Source of the DNA: Truepera sp.
Lineage (GTDB): Bacteria > Deinococcota > Deinococci > Deinococcales > Trueperaceae
Assembly: GCA_965218435.1 (NCBI GenBank)
Contig: CBDCKW010000005.1
Location: 32,001-96,000, forward strand
Length of the DNA: 64,000 nucleotides
Reading direction: 5' to 3'
Position 1 is the first letter of the stretch; each line of letters starts with the position of its first letter. This document shows, in pieces, positions 11,717 through 37,006 of this stretch. Under the pieces are notes generated by a model, which had not been told where the DNA came from, searched no databases, and saw only the letters and a program-made list of their open reading frames with translations. The position numbers and the translations under genes were made by a program.

Positions 11717-13287
11717 TTGTTTCGACGGCAGCCTCGAGCTGCTCCCGAGCAGGTAAAGATGTGGGTGCATTCGCCGCACGGTGACGGAGACGGGTACGCC
11801 CCACCGGTACGCGTCACCGGCGTGCCGGGAACGAGCTTACAGGTGGCATTACCCTCGGGCGTCGAGGCGGTTGTCGCGTTGCCCTTTCCCCATGAAGTAG
11901 CTCGCCTAACGCTCGGCGGCCAATTGCGGACGAGTCTGGCACTTACGCTCTATGAAGACGACAGCGACCTAGCTTATGCTGCTGAAACAGTTGAACGCGA
12001 AAAGGGGGCTGCTCCTGGTACGACCGGAGGCACAGCTGCCGACGACCGTGCGCTGCACCTCGCAGTCGTCGCGCTCGCTTGGAACCACTACCGCTACTTT
12101 TTTCCTTACTTTGATCAGATCGACACGGACTGGGACGCGTTACTTCCCGAGGCCATAACCCTTGCGGCACAAGACGATCCGGTCTCCTTTACGGCTACGT
12201 TCCGCTGGTTGAACGCCCAACTCCGTGACGCACACAGCTTTAGCTACCTCAAAGACGAACGGGCGCAACGCGACTTCCGTCCCCCATTCCGGTGGCGCAC
12301 GGTCGGGGCCAGTTGACGGTCGTTCATACCGACGAGGTGGGTTCCTTGACGGTCGGCGACGTCGTGACCAAAGTTGGCGGTCTGCCAAGCGGGGAGGTGC
12401 TCGAGCGTGAAATCGCGCTGCTCTCACAAACGGGCGACTTGGCTCAGCGCTACGCCGAAAACATCGTCCTCTCCGGCGCTGAGAACAGCCCCCTCGAGCT
12501 CGAAGTCGCGTCTGCTAACGGCGAAGTTCGGCCTATAGCCGTGCGGCGGAGCGTGGACCGGCGGGGGCGTAAGGGCGTGCCGACGGACAACCGCCCCGCC
12601 TCGCCCGTCGCGCGGCTTGGAGACGGCGTCGTCTACTTCGACTTCACCCGCTTGGACGACACCACCGATGTTTACACCGGGGAGGCGGCCATACACGATC
12701 TCGCGGCGCTCGTGACGCTGCTCGCGGGCGCGGAGGGCCTTGTCTTCGATATGCGGGGTTACCCCGGCTGGACCTTACCCATTGAACTGTTCGGTCATCT
12801 GACCGACAAACCGCTGCGGACCGCGCCCCTGTACATGCCCGTGGTAACCCGGCCAGATACCCCGGTGGCGCTTGTTGACGTGACCTATGAATGAGCGCAA
12901 CCCCAAGCACCCCGCTTTACCGATAAGGTAGTGTTCCTCATTGATAGTCTAGCTCTAAGCCGGGCCAAGCATATTCTTGCGATGGTCGAGGGCTACGGGC
13001 TCGGCGAACTGCTAGGTACGACGACAGCAGGTGCGAACGGCACTTACGCGGGCGTCACCTTTTACGGCCGTTACGCCTCGAGTTGGACGAGTCTTCAGGC
13101 GAACCGCTTTGGTGACAAGCAGCTTTTCGCTAAAGGCATTCCGCCGACGATCCCAGTCGAGCGTACCTTAGCAGGTGTCCGCGTAGGGCGTGACGAACAG
13201 CTCGAGCGGGCTTTTAATCACCTTTCGGGCAGGCCCGCCGCCGCTATGCGGGTTGAGGTTCTAGACTTGCCGGGGGCACCGGTTTGA
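11717..13287 (+). pseudogene. S41-family peptidase, fragmented
   Basis: WNHYRYFFPYFD..TDWD, LRDAH, LVFDMRGYPG, GTTTAGANG and GIPP motifs spread over three ORFs; N-terminus missing. Confidence 0.75.
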
Positions 13288-13739
13288 CTACAGCCGACCC
13301 CTCTGTCAAAAGACGGGTCGCTTTTCTGTCTTTCAAACGCGCAACCAAAGTGTGTCCCTTTTCGGTGCGCCTAGGGTATCAAGTAACGATTGCTCGCTAA
13401 CGACTTTACCTCTTTATAACTGGTGTTGTGTAAGGGTTTAGCAAATACCGAAAAGAACCAGACAGCCGAGCTCGTCTATCTCCACCTCAAGTTCTGTAGT
13501 GAAGCCCAAGTGTTGGTCAGGCAGCTCGAGGTACTCTTAGCATCCCGCACCGGAACGCTACCGAGGCGTTGCAAAGGCTTGTCGAGTTAGGCCTGCTCGA
13601 AGTGCTCAAGCCTGCGGCGAACCGGGCAGGACGGTATCGGGTCAAGCAAGCTTAATAGAGAAGCTAAAGAATTCTACTCTAAATACTTGACTTGTCCCCT
13701 TCAATTGACCGACCCCCCAGAAACGCCTATCCTTAAAGT

Positions 13740-21106: not shown

Positions 21107-21922
21107 TCAAAGCTCAGACCCTCCTCCGCGAGAATGCACGCGCGTATAGTGCGCCTTAGCTTTGCCGAGGCGTCGCCAGAGGTCGGGGTCAATAGGGATA
21201 GGCCGGACACTCCCGCTAGCGAGCGAGTAGAACGCCCCGTGATAGGTCAGCGTCCCGTGCCGCAACAGCTGCCAGAGCAGATTTAGAATAGTTGTTGCAG
21301 CGAAGTCGTTGACCAGTAGGTCTTGCTTTGTAAGCGCCTCGAGCGTGCTACAGCTGGGCAGGTCGTCTTCGGGAATACGCGTGTCGCAGAGTTCGGGAAA
21401 GAGTTCGTACGCGATGCGTAGGCGCTCTTGCTTCCGGCGATTGTAGTAGCCCAGGGGTTGTCCCAGCACGACCTGACCGGTGCTGGCAAGATTCCCGGCA
21501 GAGACGTGGTAGACGACCCGGTGGAGCCCCCCTGCAATCGTTGCCCTGGCTGCGCGTGTATCTACGCAGTCAATCACTAGCTTGGGGGCGTCGTAGGCGT
21601 CGGCGCAGCCTCTATCGAGGTTCTGCGGCTGCGCCCGCCAGTCGAGGCCACACGAAAGGTTGAGGCGGTTGATCAAGACCTCGGCTTTATTGAGACCCAC
21701 ATCTGATGGGTAGAAGCTCTGCCGGACGAGGTTACTTTCGCTTACGGTGTCGCCGTCGGCGAGGACGACCTCGAGGCCGGGATAGCCGAGCGCCCGGAGA
21801 CCCTGGTGGATGTTCTTGAGGCCGACGACGACCTTCGAGCCTGTCCCGCCAGCACCCACAACGAGCGTTCGGATGGGCATTCTGGAGTCTTGAAAGTACG
21901 GGTGCAAGGTGTGGCTAAGCAT
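21107..21922 (-). CDS. PRTRC-type ThiF/E1-like protein
   Basis: VVGAGGTGS, DGDTVSESNLVRQ.F, KAEVL, DCVD, PSCS.LEAL.KQDL.VN. Confidence 0.88.
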   Translation of the reverse strand: MLSHTLHPYFQDSRMPIRTLVVGAGGTGSKVVVGLKNIHQGLRALGYPGLEVVLADGDTVSESNLVRQSFYPSDVGLNKAEVLINRLNLSCGLDWRAQPQNLDRGCADAYDAPKLVIDCVDTRAARATIAGGLHRVVYHVSAGNLASTGQVVLGQPLGYYNRRKQERLRIAYELFPELCDTRIPEDDLPSCSTLEALTKQDLLVNDFAATTILNLLWQLLRHGTLTYHGAFYSLASGSVRPIPIDPDLWRRLGKAKAHYTRVHSRGGGSEL

Positions 21923-22634
21923 GAAAGAGGTCTCCGAGTGTTTCAGTAAGGGGAACCAGCTGCTCAGTAGGGAAGTGGCCCTCTTCTCTGACCCGCTGCC
22001 AGAGTTCGCCCATCGTGCCGCCCCAGTTGCGGTAGAGCAAGTTCGATGAGCCGTGAGTAAAAGCCGAGGCGAAAAAACCGCTCGAGTACCCTGCGGTGTC
22101 TTTCACACTCAGCGTGTCAGGTAGCGACGTTGACCCTAAACAGACGCCGCTAGTCGAAGTGTTCCAATAGGGCGCAGTGTAGAGCCTCGAGGCTGCGGTG
22201 GGGCGTTCATCGTTGTCTAAAGCCAGCACCCGCAGGCTTCTGTGACCTGCGATAAAGAGCAGGGGAGACTGCGGAAAACTCGAGCCCGAAAGCTGCGTGA
22301 GCAGGGGGTCATTACATGCATAAAACATCACCCGCTCCCTAGCAGGCTCGAACCACACGAGGTTCTCGTTGTTGGCGGCCAGGACGTGCGGCGGCAGCAG
22401 CTCGAGGCCGGACACCGGACTGAGGGCTTGAGAAAGTTCACGGACGGCCTCGACGTTTGCGAGGGTGCCTGGCTCGAGCATAGGTGTCGCGCCGTCGTAA
22501 CGCACTGTGTGGACCGACGCGAAGGTGTCTGCGGGTGCGCCGTAGGTGTCGCAGGCATTTTCGTAGATCAAAATGGCCTTTTTAAGCATGACCTCGTTGT
22601 GATAGCCGAGTTGTACCTGCACGTCGATACTCAT
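21915..22634 (-). CDS. PRTRC protein B (prokaryotic E2 family D)
   Basis: LYTAPYWN....VCLGS with putative catalytic Cys; FF.SAFTH. Confidence 0.8.
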   Translation of the reverse strand: MSIDVQVQLGYHNEVMLKKAILIYENACDTYGAPADTFASVHTVRYDGATPMLEPGTLANVEAVRELSQALSPVSGLELLPPHVLAANNENLVWFEPARERVMFYACNDPLLTQLSGSSFPQSPLLFIAGHRSLRVLALDNDERPTAASRLYTAPYWNTSTSGVCLGSTSLPDTLSVKDTAGYSSGFFASAFTHGSSNLLYRNWGGTMGELWQRVREEGHFPTEQLVPLTETLGDLFHA

Positions 22635-23803
22635 GCCATCGCCTCCAGGGCGTAAAAGAGTGCGTTCGTCTGTTCGAGGATGAGCCTACACACCGTTAGG
22701 GCGTCTTTTAGAGTCGTCAGCGTTTCGGGATCGTCAGGGTCGAAGCCAAGGGCGTAGGTTGGTTGAAAGTCCGTTCCCGCCTGCCAGATCTGCTGCTCAT
22801 ACTCGCCGTAGACCTCCCGCACCAGGTCGTGGTCGCCGCCAAGCGTGACGATAACGCCAAAAGGCAGTTCGCCCTCGATCAGGTCGTCAATGTGCCGGTC
22901 GCGTTCAGGGAGCGCCCCTTGCAGTTCAGCAAGTTTTTCCAGCGCTGTGATGATGGGCAATGCCTGCTCGAGCTTCTCAGTGCAGAGACCCCTACACCTC
23001 TCGAGGCTTAAAGCGCCGTGTTCCTGGTAGCGGGGCTCGAGGCGCGCATCGACCTTTTGGCTGGTCAGGAAGTGTTCCTGGGCGTAGGCAACGACATCCT
23101 CGTGGGTAAAAGCTTCTTTCCTGTCGCTGAACTGGTACCCGAGTTCTTCCTCGGCTTCTTCCAGCAACATACTGTCGTCGTCCATTCCTTGCCAGTAGTG
23201 CCAGCGGATGATGTCTTTGGCGACTTCGGGTGTAAACGCCGGGGTCAGGTCGAGCGTGCGGTAGACGTGCCCGAGGATGCTCGGGCCGAGCTGCGGCTCC
23301 AGCTTGTCGAACGCCGTCGCCGCCGCGTCAAAGGAGATGACCGGAACGCCGCCGACGAATACCAGCAGGTAGTGACGCCCTTGTTCCTCGAACTTTGCGA
23401 CCCGAAATGCGAGGTCGAATCCCGGATAGCCGAGGCTGTTGCCGAGCGTTCGGGTGATGGCCTTCTCGATGAGTGCGTTCGGGCTGCTGTAGGGCGCGTC
23501 GTCGCACTCGTGGACGAGTCCGACCTCGAGTAGCCTCAGCGCGAGCTGAGCCGAGGCAGCCTGCTCATTGTCAAGGCTGTAGTGCGAGGGGACACCCTCC
23601 AGCCGGGGAAGCGCTAGTCCAGCATAGGCAGGGAGGATGAAGGTGGGCGTTTGGCGGGTTTTCCTGTCCGACTGCTCAGCCGGGCGAGAAGCTGACCGAC
23701 GGCCTGCGCGTGCGGGTCCTTGAGGTAAGCCTGCACGAGGGGTGGGTTGTGCGTTTTGCCCGAGGTGCTCCGGGCGAGTTTCTCTTCGAGTGGGGACACG
23801 CAT
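22631..23803 (-). CDS. PRTRC protein F-like
   Basis: ALPRL.GVP, FTP....D....YWQG..D; coupled upstream of the E2 gene; SD AAGGAGG. Confidence 0.65.
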   Translation of the reverse strand: MRVPTRRETRPEHLGQNAQPTPRAGLPQGPARAGRRSASRPAEQSDRKTRQTPTFILPAYAGLALPRLEGVPSHYSLDNEQAASAQLALRLLEVGLVHECDDAPYSSPNALIEKAITRTLGNSLGYPGFDLAFRVAKFEEQGRHYLLVFVGGVPVISFDAAATAFDKLEPQLGPSILGHVYRTLDLTPAFTPEVAKDIIRWHYWQGMDDDSMLLEEAEEELGYQFSDRKEAFTHEDVVAYAQEHFLTSQKVDARLEPRYQEHGALSLERCRGLCTEKLEQALPIITALEKLAELQGALPERDRHIDDLIEGELPFGVIVTLGGDHDLVREVYGEYEQQIWQAGTDFQPTYALGFDPDDPETLTTLKDALTVCRLILEQTNALFYALEAMA

Positions 23804-23826
23804 AAGCCTCCTTTGGCAGATAAATG

Positions 23827-23848
23827 CAGGGCAACCGAAGTTGCCCTG
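23827..23848 (-). terminator. cUUCGg-tetraloop hairpin between the RES toxin and PRTRC F
   Basis: 9-bp perfect stem CAGGGCAAC/GTTGCCCTG; weak U tract, so may be a processing or stability hairpin. Confidence 0.45.
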
Positions 23849-23928
23849 GAAACTTATACCCAGGTTCTAAATGCACATTACGGCTTGGCTGAGACTGACT
23901 TTAAGCTGCACCTCGAGCCGTGTGCCAA

Positions 23929-24414
23929 TCAACGTCCTTCATTGGCAAGTCGTGCGTCGAAGCGGAAAGACCGGGGAGCCTCGATGGTCAGCTCTGTGAA
24001 CTGCGGGTGTTCGGGGTTGAGCAGATAGTTCCGTTCCTCGGGCACGATGACGCTGGGGACGGCTAAGGCGACGCTCGCCTGCGCCGCCAGCCACGCATCC
24101 CCAACTCGCCTCGCACCGTCGCTGACCGCCCTTACCTGCCAGTCTTCGGGCAAGTCCTGCTGGCGCAGCTCGAGAACGAGCCGTTCGGGAATCGCGAGCT
24201 TGAAAACCACGTACTCCCGCTCGAAGCGCCGCCTGTCGGCGTGAACCAGCGTTTCCAGCGCGGCGAGTGACAAACTCCCACTGACGTAGACAACGCGTCT
24301 ACCCGGTGTGTTCCAGCGTCCGCCGAAACGCCGTGCGCCTTCACCGTTAAAGGCGTCGGCTCGGCTGCCATACCTGGATCTGACGAGTCGCCAAGCCGTG
24401 AACACCTCAGCCAC
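23929..24414 (-). CDS. RES-domain toxin (MbcT/ParT-like)
   Basis: GEGARRFGGRWN, VYVS.SLSLAALE, VPSVIVP.E.NYLLNP.HP. Confidence 0.92.
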   Translation of the reverse strand: MAEVFTAWRLVRSRYGSRADAFNGEGARRFGGRWNTPGRRVVYVSGSLSLAALETLVHADRRRFEREYVVFKLAIPERLVLELRQQDLPEDWQVRAVSDGARRVGDAWLAAQASVALAVPSVIVPEERNYLLNPEHPQFTELTIEAPRSFRFDARLANEGR

Positions 24415-24434
24415 AAAGGTCGTTGAAACGCCGG

Positions 24435-24869
24435 TTAACTGTAAATGCCGTAGTCGATCCGCCCGAGCAGGTTCTCGACCTCTCTTGCGCCGATCTCGGT
24501 ATCGGCGTAGCCCAGCGGCGTGAGGTTGCCCAGGCTCAGATTTGGTGTTTTAAGCCACGCCGCTGCGTCACCGACGTCTTCAAATACCTGTGCGGCGCGC
24601 TCGAGCAAGTTGGCCAGGCGGAGTACGTGTTCGCTTTCGTCCGGGGCCAACCGGCCTGCACGCTTACGGCGGGTCAACGTGGTTCCGCTGATTCCTGCCA
24701 GGTTTGCAAGCATCGCGTCGCTGACGCCCAGTGCCTCAGCGAGCGTGCGAAAGACCTGAATGGGCAACCCGCTCCTTACGACCTCAATCAGGTCACGTGG
24801 GCGGTTCGTCAGACCTAACGTCTGTAAGACGCCCGTTGACCGAAACGGGGGGGGGACAAATGCATCCAT
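24435..24869 (-). CDS. Xre/MbcA/ParS antitoxin (leaderless)
   Basis: HTH plus WLKTPNLSLG..TPL...GIYS; TAAACT 6 nt before the ATG. Confidence 0.92.
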   Translation of the reverse strand: MDAFVPPPFRSTGVLQTLGLTNRPRDLIEVVRSGLPIQVFRTLAEALGVSDAMLANLAGISGTTLTRRKRAGRLAPDESEHVLRLANLLERAAQVFEDVGDAAAWLKTPNLSLGNLTPLGYADTEIGAREVENLLGRIDYGIYS

Positions 24870-25633: not shown

Positions 25634-28023
25634 GCTGGGTAAAGAAGTGGCATTACTGCCACTCCCTCCCCTAAGAACCGGACGTGCGAGTTTCCCCGCA
25701 TCCGGCTCAAGCTGTTCAAAGCCCCGGTGTTGGGGCCAGTTTCACAGCGTCGAATCGTCGGCTATGAATCTGACTATGGCAGTTGGGATGGATCATCAGC
25801 AAGTTGGATTGTCGATTATCACCGCCGCTGGCTCGTGGGATAATGTGATGGACATGCCATCCCTGTTCTCCCGTAAGCTTTTGGCGGCATACCGGACATG
25901 TTCCTCCTTGTTTTAGCCAAAGGGAACGCAACCTCTGTCGTCCGTCTAGTGAGGTCCTCATTTTGAAGGTCAAACGCTCTTCAAAGTAGGCTTCCCACCG
26001 GGGGTCGAACGGGTTGGCCTCCGTTTTGACCTTGATGTGTCGCTTAATGGGTACGTCGCCTGCGTTAAACAGTCTTGTCCATTGAGGCGTTCCATCGTTT
26101 AGGGTTTCCCCTGTTTTCGCCGCGAATACCCAGTTCCGGCTTCCCTTAGAGATGAAGTATTTATCCTTCAACCAGTGAGTGCCTTTGCCAGGATGACGGC
26201 GTTTTATCCAGCGCCATAGGGTTTGCCAAAGCTCTTTATTCACTGACTGAAACGTTTCGCTAGCAACAACATGTCTGTGATAGTTTGCCCATCCGCGTAT
26301 CACCGGGTTGAGTTGTTTAATCACATGGCTTTGTTTTGCCGTTGGCTGACGTTTCACGATTTCTCTGACTTTATCCAAGAACGTCTTGACGCTCTCTTTT
26401 GACGGCTTAATGAGTAGCTTGCCGTCGTACTTGCGGATATTTTGCCCTAAGAAATCGAACCCCTCTTCGATATGGGTGATTTTGGTTTTCTCTTGCGAGA
26501 GTTCCAAACCCCGAGCTGCCAGAAACTTGGTAATCAGGGGTTTAACTTCATTTTCTAACAACTCTTTTGAGTAGCCAGTCACAATGAAGTCGTCTGCATA
26601 CCGAATCAGATTGACCTTCTAGGTGAATCGTTTTCCATCAACCGTTTTCCGTTTGAAGCCTTTGGTTAACAGGCATTCGAGGTCATCCAGGGTCATATTC
26701 ATCAACGTTGGCGAGATGGGGCCGCCCTGCGGTGTCCCTGCCTCTGTTGGGTAGAGGGTCTTGTTGTCAATGAACCCAGCCTTCAGCCACTTGCGGAGCG
26801 TTACCTTGTCCGTGGGGATATGGTTCAGCATCCACTCGTGCTGAATCGTGTCGAAGCAGGCTTTGATGTCACCTTCCAGAATCCACTGAGCAGACGCTTT
26901 TGTTCCGAGGGAGTTAAAGCACCCTTCAATGGCGTCTGCCGTGCTTCGTTCTGGCCTGAACCCATACGAGTTCTTATCCGCTGTGGTCTCCGCGACGGGT
27001 TCGAGAGCCAGCAGGTAAAGTGCCTGCATCGCTCTATCCTTCATCGTGGGAATACCCAGCGGGCGCATCTTGCCATTGCTCTTAGGGATCCCGCCTCAGC
27101 GGGCTTGGTTTGTAACCATGCCGTTTGAGGGACACGATGGCTTGAGATTTGGCCGCCGGGGTGGACCAGGTTGCCCCGTCTACACCCGGCGTGTTCTTGC
27201 CTTGATTCTCCGTCACTCGCCTGACAGCTAAAGCTTTGGCCGAGAACGAGTGGGTCAGCGTCCACTGCAAGGCTTTCACCTTGCCATGTCGGCCTTCCTG
27301 TGTCGCCTTTACAATACGCGCCTGGAGTTTCCTCACCGTTTGGTAGCACTTGGCCCAGTCGATGCTGTGCCAGTCCACGTTTGAGTGGGAGGATGCACAC
27401 GCTTTAGCGTTCATTTGCCTTTCCTCCTTAAGAGATTCTTCAAGCTCCCTTGTAACGAACAACCATACGGAAGTCTGCCCGCTTTCGCGTGGGGTGATGT
27501 CGCGGCTGCTCAACCCCTATCTGCCCCATTACAGAGCAGCGTTCGCTTTCTCCGCGCTCCTCTACCCACAGCCCTATCGGCCCGCCTTGCGGCTTGCTTT
27601 CCTTTACAGGAGGACTATGGGCTTACCGTGTTTCATCTAAGTAACAACGATGGGTTAGACCCTGCCTCTTCACCGGTGGCCGTTTTATCCGTGTAACCCC
27701 AGCCAAGAACAGGGTTAACTGAGCCACGTACCTTTTGGTTCAAGCCTGTCAGCGTCTTTGGCTTGTTCTTGATGACGATGTTTATCAGCAGTTCACATGT
27801 GTTGGTCATACCATCGAGCCCAGTCCCCTGACCGCTTTACGCTAGCAGCCAACGCTTTTACCTCACGGTTCGTGCGTAATCTTTCGATTCGGGTACTCTT
27901 TTCTCGGCAGCTTCACACCAGAGCGTTACCACCCTCGCATGTGCCGATAGGCTACTGTTGACGGAACAACAGGTTTTGTCGTCAGAGACGCAAAACAATT
28001 ACTTAGACGACTTCACGTCGCAC
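25634..28023 (-). mobile_element. Group II intron (IIB, chloroplast-like class 1)
   Basis: 5' end GTGCG; domain V GAGCCGGATGCGGGGAAACTCGCACGTCCGGTTC; domain VI ending TTACCCAGC; inserted 8 nt after the stop of 28032-28580. Confidence 0.9.
25716..27414 (-). pseudogene. ltrA: Intron-encoded RT/maturase/HNH endonuclease, inactivated
   Basis: RVT_N, TPGVDG, GTPQGG, RYADDF and HNH motifs; frameshift near 27090 and TAG at 26619-26621. Confidence 0.9.
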
Positions 28024-29440: not shown

Positions 29441-29555
29441 AACGTTGTCTCCTCGTTTGGGTGTAAGAAAGGGAGAAGAACCTAAACCAGGTTTAGGTTC
29501 AGGTTCTTCGTCGACACGTTATACGAGATAACGTGCCCGCCTGAGTGCTCAGGTC

Positions 29556-30857
29556 TTAGGCAGCGTTCACAGTCTGCTCGAGCGTCTTAAAGCCGTCCAT
29601 GATGCTCGGGATCATCCGGGCATTCGTGGCCGCTTCAAGTCTCGCGTGGGCAAGAGCTGCGACAACACCTTTCGGCGCTTTACGATCACTTTGCTTGAGC
29701 TGCGTTTCAAGCAAGGTGACGATGGTCTCGGGCACGTCGGCTTCCGCTTCGTCCCTGGCCTCGGCATCATCGGCTTTGATAAGCTCACGTCGAGCTTTTA
29801 CCTCAGCGGTGACTTTCTCGGCCGTTTTGCGACCTTCGAGCCATGCGTCCGATGGTGCTTCTATGGGCCAGCGAGGACCCTGGGTACGTGGTGCCGGTTG
29901 TACCCTGATAGGTTTCGCCAACTCCGCTGCCCAGTAACCTGCACTCCCACCGCGACCACCTTTCTGCGGCGGCAGCGGGGGCACGAAGTCACTTACCTTC
30001 GGCCCGCCTGCCAGCTCAGCTAACGCGTCCTGGTAACTTGCTTCACCCGCTTCGGAGACAAGCTCGTCGGCACGTTCGGCGACCAGAGCGCGTTCTTCGA
30101 TGTCGTCTTCATCACCAAAGTGGGGTGACAGAAGCGGATCGAGGTTGCGGCTGGTGTCTCTGACAAACCGCGCGTGCTCAAAGCTCGGGGCTGAAGCACC
30201 GAACAAAGAAACGCGGCGTATCGGATCACGGGCGTCGAGTTCGGCGGCTTCTTTCCAGGTGATGTCGGCCTTGTACCCAAGACGCTGTATCACCCCGAAG
30301 TCCCGACCGCTGTTCTGCATGAAGTCTTCTTCAAGGTCCCACGGCGCGACTTTGGTCAGCGTAAGTGACCTGGTCAGCGGGTGGGTGCGTTTGACGAGCG
30401 TGTGCCAGCCATTTCTGGAGGCGGACTGCTCATCCCACAGCTCTCGAAGAAGCTCTTTGAGAACGCGGCGGTGGTTTCTCTTGCAGCGGAGGTCTAAACG
30501 ACCCGAAGCTGCTGCGGGGGCGACTTTGTTCACCACGAACTTGGCGAAGTTCGGATTGTTACGCAGCCGCTGCCCGAACTCTTTCCTGACCATCTGCTCA
30601 CGCGAACGCCGGTTGACGTCGTCAGCAGAGGACGAGTAAAAAGAGAAGAGCACCACATCCGAATTCACGAGGCGGACGAGGAGCCTCATGGCGAGAGGGC
30701 GGACGTCATCGGGACAGACAAGTCGAACGTTTCCGTCCAACACATCTGCTGCTCTCTTACGAGCTTCCTGGGCAAACTTGGCGTCTGCCTGATAGCGCCC
30801 CAGAAACCCTTTGACACTCTGACCAAACACAAACGTATCCTCCTGCTGGTTTTGCAT
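29556..30857 (-). CDS. Orphan 433-aa protein
   Basis: Start placed at ATG 30857 after SD AGAAAGGGG; long ORF, no confident family. Confidence 0.75.
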   Translation of the reverse strand: MQNQQEDTFVFGQSVKGFLGRYQADAKFAQEARKRAADVLDGNVRLVCPDDVRPLAMRLLVRLVNSDVVLFSFYSSSADDVNRRSREQMVRKEFGQRLRNNPNFAKFVVNKVAPAAASGRLDLRCKRNHRRVLKELLRELWDEQSASRNGWHTLVKRTHPLTRSLTLTKVAPWDLEEDFMQNSGRDFGVIQRLGYKADITWKEAAELDARDPIRRVSLFGASAPSFEHARFVRDTSRNLDPLLSPHFGDEDDIEERALVAERADELVSEAGEASYQDALAELAGGPKVSDFVPPLPPQKGGRGGSAGYWAAELAKPIRVQPAPRTQGPRWPIEAPSDAWLEGRKTAEKVTAEVKARRELIKADDAEARDEAEADVPETIVTLLETQLKQSDRKAPKGVVAALAHARLEAATNARMIPSIMDGFKTLEQTVNAA

Positions 30858-31003
30858 GTCTTTCCCCTTTCTTACAACTGAGTTCAGACAGACCTGAGAC
30901 TTGGTAGTTTGGCCTATCTGCTGTGAGCCTAGCAAACCCTGGAAATCCCTGTGCTGTTTAGGTGCGTAAGGGACGCAAAAACGGCGTACACGCAGCAAAG
31001 GAT

Positions 31004-31032
31004 TTGCACCCCGATAGAGTTGGTGCTACACT
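31004..31032 (+). promoter_or_regulatory. Sigma70-type promoter for a putative antisense sRNA
   Basis: TTGCAC-N17-TACACT with extended -10 TGn. Confidence 0.65.
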
Positions 31033-31038
31033 CTAGGG

Positions 31039-31119
31039 GCATTTCAATCCTTCTGGATTGCACTGAGTTACCAGGCGGCAGAGTTTACTTGGTAGTTGCT
31101 CACTGCCTGGGCTTTTCTT
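31039..31119 (+). ncRNA. Putative ~80-nt antisense sRNA
   Basis: 5' hairpin CAATCC/GGATTG, single-stranded ACUGAGUU, long hairpin with loop ACUUGGUAGUU, then U-rich tail; both motifs are complementary to the leader of the 433-aa gene. Confidence 0.55.
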
Positions 31120-31129
31120 GCCCCGACAA

Positions 31130-31152
31130 CAAAAAAGCCCCGCACTGGGGCT
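31130..31152 (-). terminator. Intrinsic terminator of the Uma2 gene
   Basis: Minus strand AGCCCC-AGTGC-GGGGCT followed by a T run. Confidence 0.8.
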
Positions 31153-31174
31153 CGCGCACAAATTTGTGAAGGCG

Positions 31175-31729
31175 TTAGCTGTCGAACAGCTCGCTGATCG
31201 GCAGTTGCCATCCCGGTACAACTTCACCACCGTCGAGCGTGTCGTCTACCCCCAGAACCTTCACATCGGCATCGGGAGCGTGGACGAACACCTGCTGCCT
31301 GCGCGGGTTGACGACCACGACCATCTTGGAGCCCGCTTCCAGCCACTCGGCCACCTTGTCGCTCACCTCGGTGTAGAGATCAAAGGGGGAGACGACTAGG
31401 GCGGCCAGGTCGGGCGCACCGGGCCAGTAGCCCTGAACCGGGCCTACCTCGTCGAGCCGCTTCTGACTGATGAAAGCGGCGTCGGGTGCGCGGACGGTGT
31501 CGGGATTGCTGGCGAGTTTGAAGCCCGTTTCGGCGGCGTAGACCTTACCGAGCCTTTTGGCCTTCACGAAGTTTCGCAGCTCGGCAGCGAACTCGAGCGC
31601 GAGCATTCCATGTTCGTTTCCTGCGGGTGCCATCTTCTTCAGCTCCCCCTTTACTAGTTCATAGCGAAAGCCGTCGTTGGGACAGCGGAGGAGTTCGTCG
31701 GCTGTGGTTAGCTGTACCTGGGTGGTCAC
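31175..31729 (-). CDS. Uma2 (DUF820) endonuclease-like protein
   Basis: RYELVKG, VRAPDAAFIS, APDLA...VSP, KV.EWL.AG; GTG start after AGGAGG. Confidence 0.9.
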   Translation of the reverse strand: MTTQVQLTTADELLRCPNDGFRYELVKGELKKMAPAGNEHGMLALEFAAELRNFVKAKRLGKVYAAETGFKLASNPDTVRAPDAAFISQKRLDEVGPVQGYWPGAPDLAALVVSPFDLYTEVSDKVAEWLEAGSKMVVVVNPRRQQVFVHAPDADVKVLGVDDTLDGGEVVPGWQLPISELFDS

Positions 31730-36186: not shown

Positions 36187-37006
36187 TTGGACCAAAGCTC
36201 CAAACCCACGCTCACCACTGCCATTCGTTCCTATCTCGAGGCAAAACGCCTTGACGGGTATAGCCCCCGGACACTTTACTCGTACCGCCGACAACTGCAG
36301 CACCTCGCCGTGCATTTGGGAAGCGATACGCTCGTCGATCGGATTCGACTCGAATATCTTCGCCCTTACCTATCCAGCTTCACGCATTTGAAGACGTCGA
36401 GTCTGGCAAATAGGGTTCGGGTCGTCAAGGTGTTCTTCAAGTGGCTGCACGAAGAAGAGGTGTTGTTACGAAACCCTGCAGTAAAGCTTAAAGAGCCTCG
36501 GCTTCCTCACTGCATCCCGAAAGCATTGTCCACCGAGGAGATCGAGTTGTTGGGTGACGCCTGTAAGAGTCCGCCCGAGCACGCCCTCACCGAGTTCTTC
36601 TTCGCCACCGGTTGCTGGGTCGGAGAGTTTCACGCCCTTGACCAGGATTAACGTGAACTGGACCCAACGGAGTGCCATCGTGCTGGGTAAGGGCAACAAA
36701 GAGCGAGAAGTTTACTTCGGTGCAAAGGCGGCTTTGTGGCTCAAGCGCTATCTCGATAGTCGCGGGGATTTGAGCCCCGCACTCTTCGTCACCGACCGAC
36801 GTCGGGCACAAAAAGACGGTGGTTTGAGCCGACAGCGCTTGAGCATCTCCCAAATGCAGCGCGTCTTCAAGCGCGTGGCTGCCAGGTGCGGCCTTGCAAC
36901 GCGGGTGACGCCGCACGTTCTTCGGCATACTCTAGCGACAGCGACCCTTCTACTGAACCAGGACGCGCCCATCGCGGCGGTGCAGTCGATCCTGGGGCAC
37001 GCCTAG
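36187..37006 (+). pseudogene. Tyrosine recombinase (XerC/D-like), frameshifted and truncated
   Basis: SAM-like N-domain, ATGCWVGE (catalytic R lost), VLGKGNKER, TPHVLRHT, ILGHA*; catalytic Tyr absent. Confidence 0.88.

Follow-up and report, generated by a model that had tools for sequence, protein, structure and literature searches.

Organization of the locus

We analyzed a 64,000-nucleotide stretch of DNA from Truepera sp. (here referred to as the window), in which an intergenic region lies between the gene for a 433-amino-acid protein (P0001) and an upstream Uma2-family gene. The features of this region and its flanks are as follows (sRNA, small RNA; SD, Shine-Dalgarno).

29462..29509, minus strand: terminator-like hairpin after the target gene; 16 of 18 tail positions complementary to the gene's own SD region
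29556..30857, minus strand: target gene, encoding the 433-amino-acid soluble protein P0001 (open reading frame, homologues)
30864..30869, minus strand: SD-like AAGGGG, 6 nt before the AUG; predicted to be unpaired without the sRNA
30877..30884, minus strand: target element 1, in the linker between hairpin and SD (-20 to -27 from the AUG)
30885..30920, minus strand: leader hairpin at the predicted mRNA 5' end; its loop is target element 2 (30899-30909)
30926..30934, minus strand: predicted mRNA promoter, extended -10 TG-C-TAGGCT; invariant in 4 of 4 close copies, no consensus -35
31004..31032, plus strand: predicted sRNA promoter, TTGCAC-N17-TG-C-TACACT; its -10 region is the same in all four close copies
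31039..31119, plus strand: predicted antisense sRNA of ~80 nt, starting GCAU (folding, motifs)
31045-31060, plus strand: small 5' hairpin of the sRNA, with a pyrimidine-rich loop
31062-31069, plus strand: sRNA element 1, a repeat of leader element 1
31071-31110, plus strand: sRNA main stem, with loop element 2 at 31087-31097
31113-31119, plus strand: U tail of the sRNA (sequence)
31128..31153, minus strand: intrinsic terminator of the upstream Uma2 gene; kept in 4 of 4 close copies
31175..31729, minus strand: Uma2-family (PF05685) gene, the upstream neighbor in the window, in copies 2 and 3 (see below), and in metagenome locus L003

The probable mRNA start, near position 30920, coincides with the base of the leader hairpin, and the putative sRNA start at GCAU is placed by the invariant extended -10 motif. 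The first-pass annotation, made from the sequence alone, had placed a TTGCAC-N17-TACACT promoter with an extended -10 TG before the sRNA; this sequence is present at 31004-31032 but was missed by a consensus promoter scan (at least 9 of 12 matches needed), which listed neither the sRNA promoter nor the mRNA promoter. The TG-C-TAnnnT-N6-GCAT geometry recurs in two distant loci (L009 and L010). The hairpins and promoters were conserved while the spacer in between diverged. No terminator-like structure was listed by a terminator scan between the leader and the coding start. The terminator of the Uma2 gene faces that of the sRNA and insulates the cassette; the Uma2 gene itself was absent at the distant loci read.

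The complementarity between the tail of the hairpin at 29462-29509 and the SD region may reflect long-range 5'-3' pairing or chance between purine- and pyrimidine-rich tracts. The predicted pairing (-25.1 in the window; -17.7 in copy 2) competes with the leader hairpin (-24.5).

Secondary structures and strand preference

The SD-proximal hairpin was described at first pass as pairing fully only on the mRNA strand, and it folded on the minus strand only (10 bp; z score, -3.15; 0 of 200 shuffles as good), with a z score of +0.23 on the plus strand (105 of 200 shuffles as good). In an alignment of four sequences, 92.5% of the cells of this stem were paired, two pairs were altered on both sides, and the G-U types fell on the minus strand. 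This degree of covariation was reached by 131 of 500 shuffles; thus, with only four sequences, the stem did not pass the shuffle control. The SD was predicted to be unpaired in the window and copy 2 and partly paired in L003.

The distal hairpin had the uninterrupted plus-strand outer stem (8 bp; -20.3 kcal/mol versus -14.5 kcal/mol on the minus strand) and the U-rich tail (31113-31119) that had been ascribed to it. For an 84-nt piece containing it, the z scores were -2.33 on the plus strand (4 of 200 shuffles) and -1.81 on the minus strand (11 of 200), so that folding alone prefers the plus strand only mildly. The sRNA stem was 100% paired across the four sequences, with two G-C/G-U changes that hold on the plus strand only and no two-sided change. 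The small 5' hairpin stayed paired across three different stem sequences. The YUNR motif noted earlier in the sRNA loop (CUUG) was invariant in 4 of 4 close copies; the target loop in the leader contained no such motif. Rfam yielded no match to the sRNA at its gathering score, and C4 models appeared neither at that score nor among the four matches with E values of 10 or less.

The motif pair and its chance expectation

The observation that opened this work, a motif pair occurring twice in the window, was reproduced: ACTGAGTT lies at 30877 and 31062 and ACTTGGTAGTT at 30899 and 31087. The longer motif sits inside hairpin loops, as had been stated, and the identity is limited to loop and linker, the stems being unrelated. 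The paired pattern was found at these two places only in the whole 4.8-Mb genome. Among 4.63 Mb (contigs C5 and C9), there were 10 pairs of an 11-mer and an 8-mer of comparable kind, including the window's own, which corresponds to about one per seven 64-kb windows, or about 2 per Mb. At this frequency the motif pair alone is not strong evidence. A scan anchored at start codons gave scores of at least 18 for 7 of 2029 upstream regions of the same genome, and two of these seven belong to the element itself.

Allele concordance in close copies

Contig C5 carries three copies of the intergenic region. Copy 2 stands before a 94% identical paralogue, and L003 encodes a protein with 76% identity to P0001. 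The gene had been called an orphan, which did not hold: we detected 39 homologues at 57 to 93% identity and distant ones at 22 to 30%.

Each of the three close copies with an intact gene carried its own allele, present in both the leader and the sRNA (3 of 3 concordant): ACTGAGTT/CTTGGTAG in the window, CTTGAATT/CTTGGCAG in copy 2, and TCTGTGATTT/CTTGGGAG in L003. The element 1 allele of the leader was identical to the sRNA's own in all three, and CTTGAATT and CTTGGCAGTT read alike in the leader and sRNA of copy 2. Copy 3 was discordant (its leader loop is of the window type, and its sRNA loop carries another base); an insertion sequence lies inside its element 1, and no gene follows it. The covariation analysis that had been suggested as a check thus gave three alleles with matched changes in both elements, as the antisense proposal predicted. 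Concordance was seen in only three close and two distant loci, and the close loci are related.

Upstream extensions translated in homologous proteins point to further alleles. P0023, P0027, and copy 2 have C at the loop-center codon. Judging from the protein sequences, the extension of P0015 has F there, which would match the sRNA of copy 3, and that of P0017 has N-H; P0017 and P0023 appear to begin with the translated reverse strand of the sRNA promoter. Two contigs of X9 kept the leader and sRNA around a diverged spacer (contigs of 4 of 23 runs, among the matches listed). Contigs from other studies contained, as loose ends, the leader allele of copy 2 and one more allele, again among the matches listed.

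Distant homologous loci

A profile search of 364 genomes of the phylum found the gene in four, including the genome of the window; the three others belong to the same family, and their homologues share 22 to 30% protein identity with P0001. For one of these three genomes, the nearest entries to a ribosomal protein were ribosomes of Deinococcus and Thermus. At the DNA level, the element was found in 1 of 128 family genomes. Locus searches returned at least one locus among metagenome contigs and none among genome contigs, viral contigs, and plasmids.

The architecture was kept with unrelated sequence in two of the three distant loci (L010 and L008), which adds to the support that matched alleles in close loci give to the antisense reading. 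L010 has TG-C-TAAGCT, six bases, GCAU, a 5' hairpin, a main hairpin, and a U tail; its loop repeat is 12 nt, its 5' domain is predicted to pair over the SD and AUG, and its main hairpin prefers the antisense strand (-29.5 versus -22.1). L008 combines a 16-nt repeat covering the SD with an 8-nt loop repeat, and its extended -10 motifs overlap back to back; its first hairpin has no U tail, with a terminator 70 nt further on. The leader hairpin of L010 and the sRNA hairpin of L008 showed no strand preference.

The third locus, L009 (genome G058), has a promoter-GCAT unit and hairpins without a duplicated target, and no second target for this sRNA-like unit was found in 18 kb or, by pattern, in G058. 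The unit occupies L009:2788-2880, with promoter and GCAT on one strand; the other strand carries a strong SD and the ATG of a 57-codon frame. It may represent the same control in a cis-encoded, overlapping arrangement.

In five of six loci, none of 300 shuffles reached the paired-repeat score, which was defined after the sequences had been seen; the L009 score was 14 (reached by 13 of 300). Overall, the layout was conserved in five of the six loci with an intact gene. The homologue part of the check proposed at first pass was borne out in the close loci and in two of the three distant ones; its Rfam part gave no family match.

Predicted pairing between sRNA and leader

In a 5 × 5 matrix of sRNAs and leaders, the cognate pair had the best summed duplex energy in all five rows and all five columns; the segments were defined after the sequences had been seen, and the energies take no account of what it costs to open the 5' hairpin (7 bp in L010) or of the topological constraint on loop-loop helices. 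There was one near cross-match, through G-U pairs, of the window sRNA on the copy 2 leader (-35.8 versus -40.5 for the cognate pair); the reverse pair, the copy 2 sRNA on the window leader, gave -23.7.

Between GCAU and element 1, the sRNA repeats, in register and with degeneracy, the part of the leader that runs from the start codon to element 1. The GCAT-to-element-1 lengths of sRNA and leader were 31/31 in the window, 30/30 in copy 2, and 29/29 in L003, and the cognate 5'-domain identities were 19/32, 21/31, and 18/29, respectively (noncognate, 8 to 16). Because the 5' domain copies the leader in register to the start codon, pairing should cover the SD and AUG, and the predicted duplexes do extend over both; in L003, L008, and L010, pairing is predicted directly on the SD. 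Pairing upstream of element 1 beats shuffles only modestly (102, 45, and 158 of 2000 reach it). The longest exact match is 11 nt at the window and 16 nt in L008. Pairing had initially been ascribed to two motifs; both elements are matched, but the contact probably extends past them over the SD and AUG.

Duplication and exchange of the control region

The window locus and copy 2 sit inside a duplication of at least 43 kb on one contig (G000:C5, 20001-63560 and 262079-309300; 92 to 99.7% identity). Their DNA is 98 to 100% identical over the first 242 codons and 72 to 85% identical from the start codon through the sRNA and Uma2 gene. Residues 1 to 242 are identical despite the differing alleles, with 24 changes in residues 243 to 425. 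The fall in identity at the start codon, from 98-100% to 72-85%, indicates that the control region was replaced as a block, and the cassette was thus exchanged as a module.

In the window, a group II intron (RF00029, RF02012) at 25634-27973 has its reverse transcriptase frame in three pieces (two in the duplicate). The cluster at 21107-24869 comprises ThiF, Prok-E2_D, and a 390-amino-acid gene, with an Xre-RES pair upstream, and the duplicate of this cluster contains an inserted reverse transcriptase ORF, the second of intron-like type. A tyrosine integrase at 36187-37006 is split into two overlapping frames.

Target protein and genomic surroundings

P0001 has a basic N-terminal part of 170 amino acids, an acidic middle, and a conserved C-terminal helical bundle. 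Its N-terminal part contains two tandem repeats of about 50 amino acids (hhalign probability, 78%; E value, 1.8e-5), and the N-terminal half is basic in 9 of 9 members (pI 9.5 to 10.7). The differences between P0001 and the L003 protein by codon position (74/55/138) show coding-type divergence. The first-pass description of a large soluble protein of no known family stands: the 433-amino-acid protein matched nothing in Pfam, PHROGs, NCBIfam, PADLOC, PDB sequences, or ESM Atlas, and no hydrophobic (membrane) helix was found in any of the nine members (maximum 19-residue hydropathy, 1.45). The AF2 model had a mean pLDDT of 69.9, and fold searches returned generic helical matches only (best Z score, 6.2, for residues 253 to 433), the N-terminal domain being barely covered. 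Two candidate assignments were dropped: a weak DinI match in one homologue lay below the cut-off, and a "Mor family" source label on one protein was backed by no profile.

In the window, P0001 precedes ThiF, Prok-E2_D, and Xre-RES genes and the group II intron; we take the ThiF/Prok-E2_D cassette to be PRTRC. At the window and in G058, a P0001-type gene stands first in what appears to be an operon of element genes; in G058, the homologue lies ahead of DUF932, AAA, and DUF2201 genes with a coupling protein at 23 kb. DUF932 is linked to leading regions. The G061 homologue lies on a 242-kb contig that also encodes a coupling protein, its neighbors being parAB and, 4.5 kb away, a separate primase-helicase gene, and the G059 homologue is 2 to 5 kb from a transglycosylase (SLT) and a coupling protein. 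By this gene content, the distant homologues are placed on predicted conjugative elements. Contig C5 contains ParB, and neither a coupling protein nor DUF932 was found on it; its copy is therefore only a candidate mobile element.

Toxin-antitoxin genes are common nearby (Xre-RES in the window, PemK in L013, and PIN/Phd in L003). According to the available part of PMC11541004, the main text of which does not mention DUF932, leading regions are rich in uncharacterized and toxin-antitoxin genes. The DUF932 gene of G059 appears split (L014:2341-4441 and 12275-13426): its start is downstream of the homologue and its remainder is 9 kb away on the other strand, each piece beside the same transposase. 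Upstream of the G058 homologue, a large NB-ARC/TPR protein, a PD-(D/E)XK nuclease, and a WYL gene (L013:12165-16938) form a possible defense cluster.

Proposed mechanism and alternative explanations

We consider it likely that a divergent antisense sRNA of about 80 nt represses translation of the 433-amino-acid gene, a reading drawn from sequence comparison and predicted structure. Two back-to-back extended -10 promoters, suggested by conserved motifs, would yield a nonoverlapping mRNA and sRNA. The mRNA would start with a hairpin whose loop is complementary to that of the sRNA main hairpin, and loop-loop contact may initiate the interaction, as in plasmid antisense systems. The single-stranded linker of the sRNA would then pair with the linker just 5' of the SD, and the sRNA 5' domain would finally zip over the SD and AUG; the complementarity is observed, and the order is what we infer. 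A full duplex would not form, because the stems are not complementary. The SD is predicted to be open without the sRNA, which argues for repression. Since matching changes in both partners make specificity alleles, each element copy would silence mainly its own gene. Regarding its role, we tentatively suggest, with somewhat less than even confidence, an early or establishment gene of conjugative elements, which would show a burst of expression when the element has entered a cell without the cognate sRNA and would be silenced once the sRNA builds up or where an element of the same allele is already resident.

With the same antisense mechanism, the module could serve addiction, as a type I toxin-antitoxin system whose toxin is soluble and unusually large. 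The divergent layout is that of tisB/istR (available part of PMC4147584), toxin-antitoxin genes are frequent in the neighborhoods, and the sole discordant copy (copy 3) has lost the gene, although this loss may have preceded the discordance. We nevertheless regard a toxin as unlikely: the hydrophobic helix was absent from 9 of 9 members, no toxin family or fold was matched, the gene leads an apparent operon of element genes in the window and G058, and the SD is predicted to be open, whereas the mRNA of par-pAD1 conceals its SD. Alternatively, the sRNA might pair as proposed and act by transcription attenuation, RNase targeting, or activation. P4 CI causes termination through two complementary sites (available part of PMC4825925), and element 1 of the window, at 20 to 27 nt before the AUG, is at the edge of the ribosome footprint. 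Such modes are improbable given that no terminator-like structure was listed between leader and start, that an already unpaired SD leaves nothing to activate, and that pairing falls directly on the SD in L003, L008, and L010.

Readings without an antisense sRNA fare less well. Tandem protein-binding sites in DNA or RNA (e.g., for autoregulation) would suit a protein with a basic N-terminal half and a tandem repeat, as well as two repeat copies on one strand upstream of the gene. However, the sites differ between the window and copy 2 while residues 1 to 242 are identical, and a basic half that does not change with the allele weighs against such sites. The sites of L008 and L010 are wholly different with positions relative to loops and SD kept, and the distal hairpin, which favors the opposite strand, comes with a promoter motif and a U tail of its own and is located on the far side of a minus-strand terminator; we thus find this explanation quite improbable. 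A nonfunctional relic of a duplicated leader, its copies still alike through chance or gene conversion, would account for the resemblance of the sRNA 5' domain to a leader duplicate, and motif pairs do arise by chance at about 2 per Mb. It is nonetheless highly improbable, as identity is confined to loop and linker with unrelated stems, parallel changes occur in three alleles and two distant lineages, and hairpins and promoters are conserved across a diverging spacer. We give equally little credence to a two-segment guide that the 433-amino-acid protein would load and direct to DNA of its own leader, in the manner of TIGR or bridge RNAs. A pair of short, variable segments (8 to 16 nt) matching a nearby site and a basic protein of no known fold would fit, but the target loop is presented by an mRNA-strand hairpin with G-U pairs, for which DNA recognition has no need, there is one unit and no array, and no structural match to such proteins was found (the N-terminal domain being barely covered).

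We also offer a broader scenario, which we regard as doubtful. Conjugative elements may carry exchangeable RNA "immunity cassettes," in which leader duplication turned a cis antisense RNA into a trans-acting pair of divergent layout, the alleles diversify together and swap as modules at the start codon, and one-way G-U silencing sets a dominance order among coresident elements over an uncharacterized early regulator or anti-defense protein. The ancestral, cis-encoded state could be represented by L009, whose promoter, SD, ATG, and one hairpin overlap across both strands.

The two partners of this predicted antisense system are encoded at separate sites but change in concert. At least five orthogonal pairs occur naturally, which makes it possible to test directly how RNA-RNA specificity evolves and how trans sRNAs originate by leader duplication. 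The locus also singles out an uncharacterized family of proteins on conjugative elements as one requiring tight control specific to each element, and it provides compact translation switches that are orthogonal to one another.

Comparison with known systems

Antisense control by loop plus tail on mobile DNA is an already known principle; for the layout, cassette exchange, and target class found here, no description was found in the literature searched. The window system works like par-pAD1 and the plasmid antisense RNAs and lacks defining features of each, as it does those of C4/CI and tisB/istR. C4 RNA acts by two-element (a'/b') pairing. The known systems are described below from the available portions of the sources cited.

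The first-pass annotation took tisB/istR as an analogy, but par-pAD1 RNA I/RNA II (Fst family) and the plasmid antisense RNAs with a 5' tail plus loop are closer. In par-pAD1, which resides on a conjugative element, the two RNAs owe their complementarity to direct repeats that are read in opposite directions, and a loop-loop start is followed by pairing that hides the translation start (PMC7472228, PMC4147584). Opposite-read direct repeats and complementarity at the translation start were found here at the sequence level. The par-pAD1 RNAs are convergent, and a shared bidirectional terminator supplies their kissing loops, whereas here the transcripts are divergent and nonoverlapping, according to the predicted promoters, and the loop match is a repeat within unrelated stems. 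An intramolecular stem-loop hides the SD of the par-pAD1 mRNA; here, the SD is predicted to be unpaired in the window and copy 2. Its target is a 33-amino-acid membrane peptide, in contrast to a soluble protein of 433 amino acids.

In pMV158 RNAII and R1 CopA, a 5' single-stranded tail and a hairpin loop recognize the mRNA, loop changes create new specificity groups, and YUNR occurs in one loop (PMC4485353). The same bipartite recognition with allele specificity was predicted here in silico. Because the plasmid copy-number RNAs are cis-encoded, one mutation changes both partners (PMC4485353), unlike the window system, in which two separate sites must change together. They are also fully complementary to their targets, whereas the transcripts here are predicted not to overlap and have unrelated stems. 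Their target is a replication initiator; P0001 has no Pfam or NCBIfam match.

P1/P7 C4 and P4 CI likewise act in trans through two short, separated elements; they control an early gene of a mobile element and provide immunity specific to that element (PMC8201110, PMC4825925, PMC2864571). Unlike C4, the window sRNA does not match RF01695 in Rfam. CI causes termination and is released by processing of the transcript that contains its targets, whereas a separate promoter on the opposite strand is predicted here. The C4/CI target is an antirepressor or lytic operon, and P0001 has no family or fold match.

The sRNA and mRNA of tisB/istR-1 are back to back and nonoverlapping (PMC4147584), as the predicted promoters suggest here. 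That pair uses one contiguous 21-nt match at a standby site, compared with two sites (8 and 11 nt) and a degenerate extension at the window, where the longest contiguous match (11 nt; 16 nt in L008) is shorter than the 18 nt or so expected of divergent type I systems. The TisB toxin is a hydrophobic peptide of 29 amino acids, again in contrast to the 433-amino-acid soluble target.

For the proposed role, the closest logic is that of the pLS20-family establishment genes, with rapid, transient expression in a new host; this expression is transient because the repressor is not transferred (PMC8708921). Repression in those plasmids is exerted by a protein (Reg576) or by another kind of cis element, and at the window the repressor would be an sRNA.
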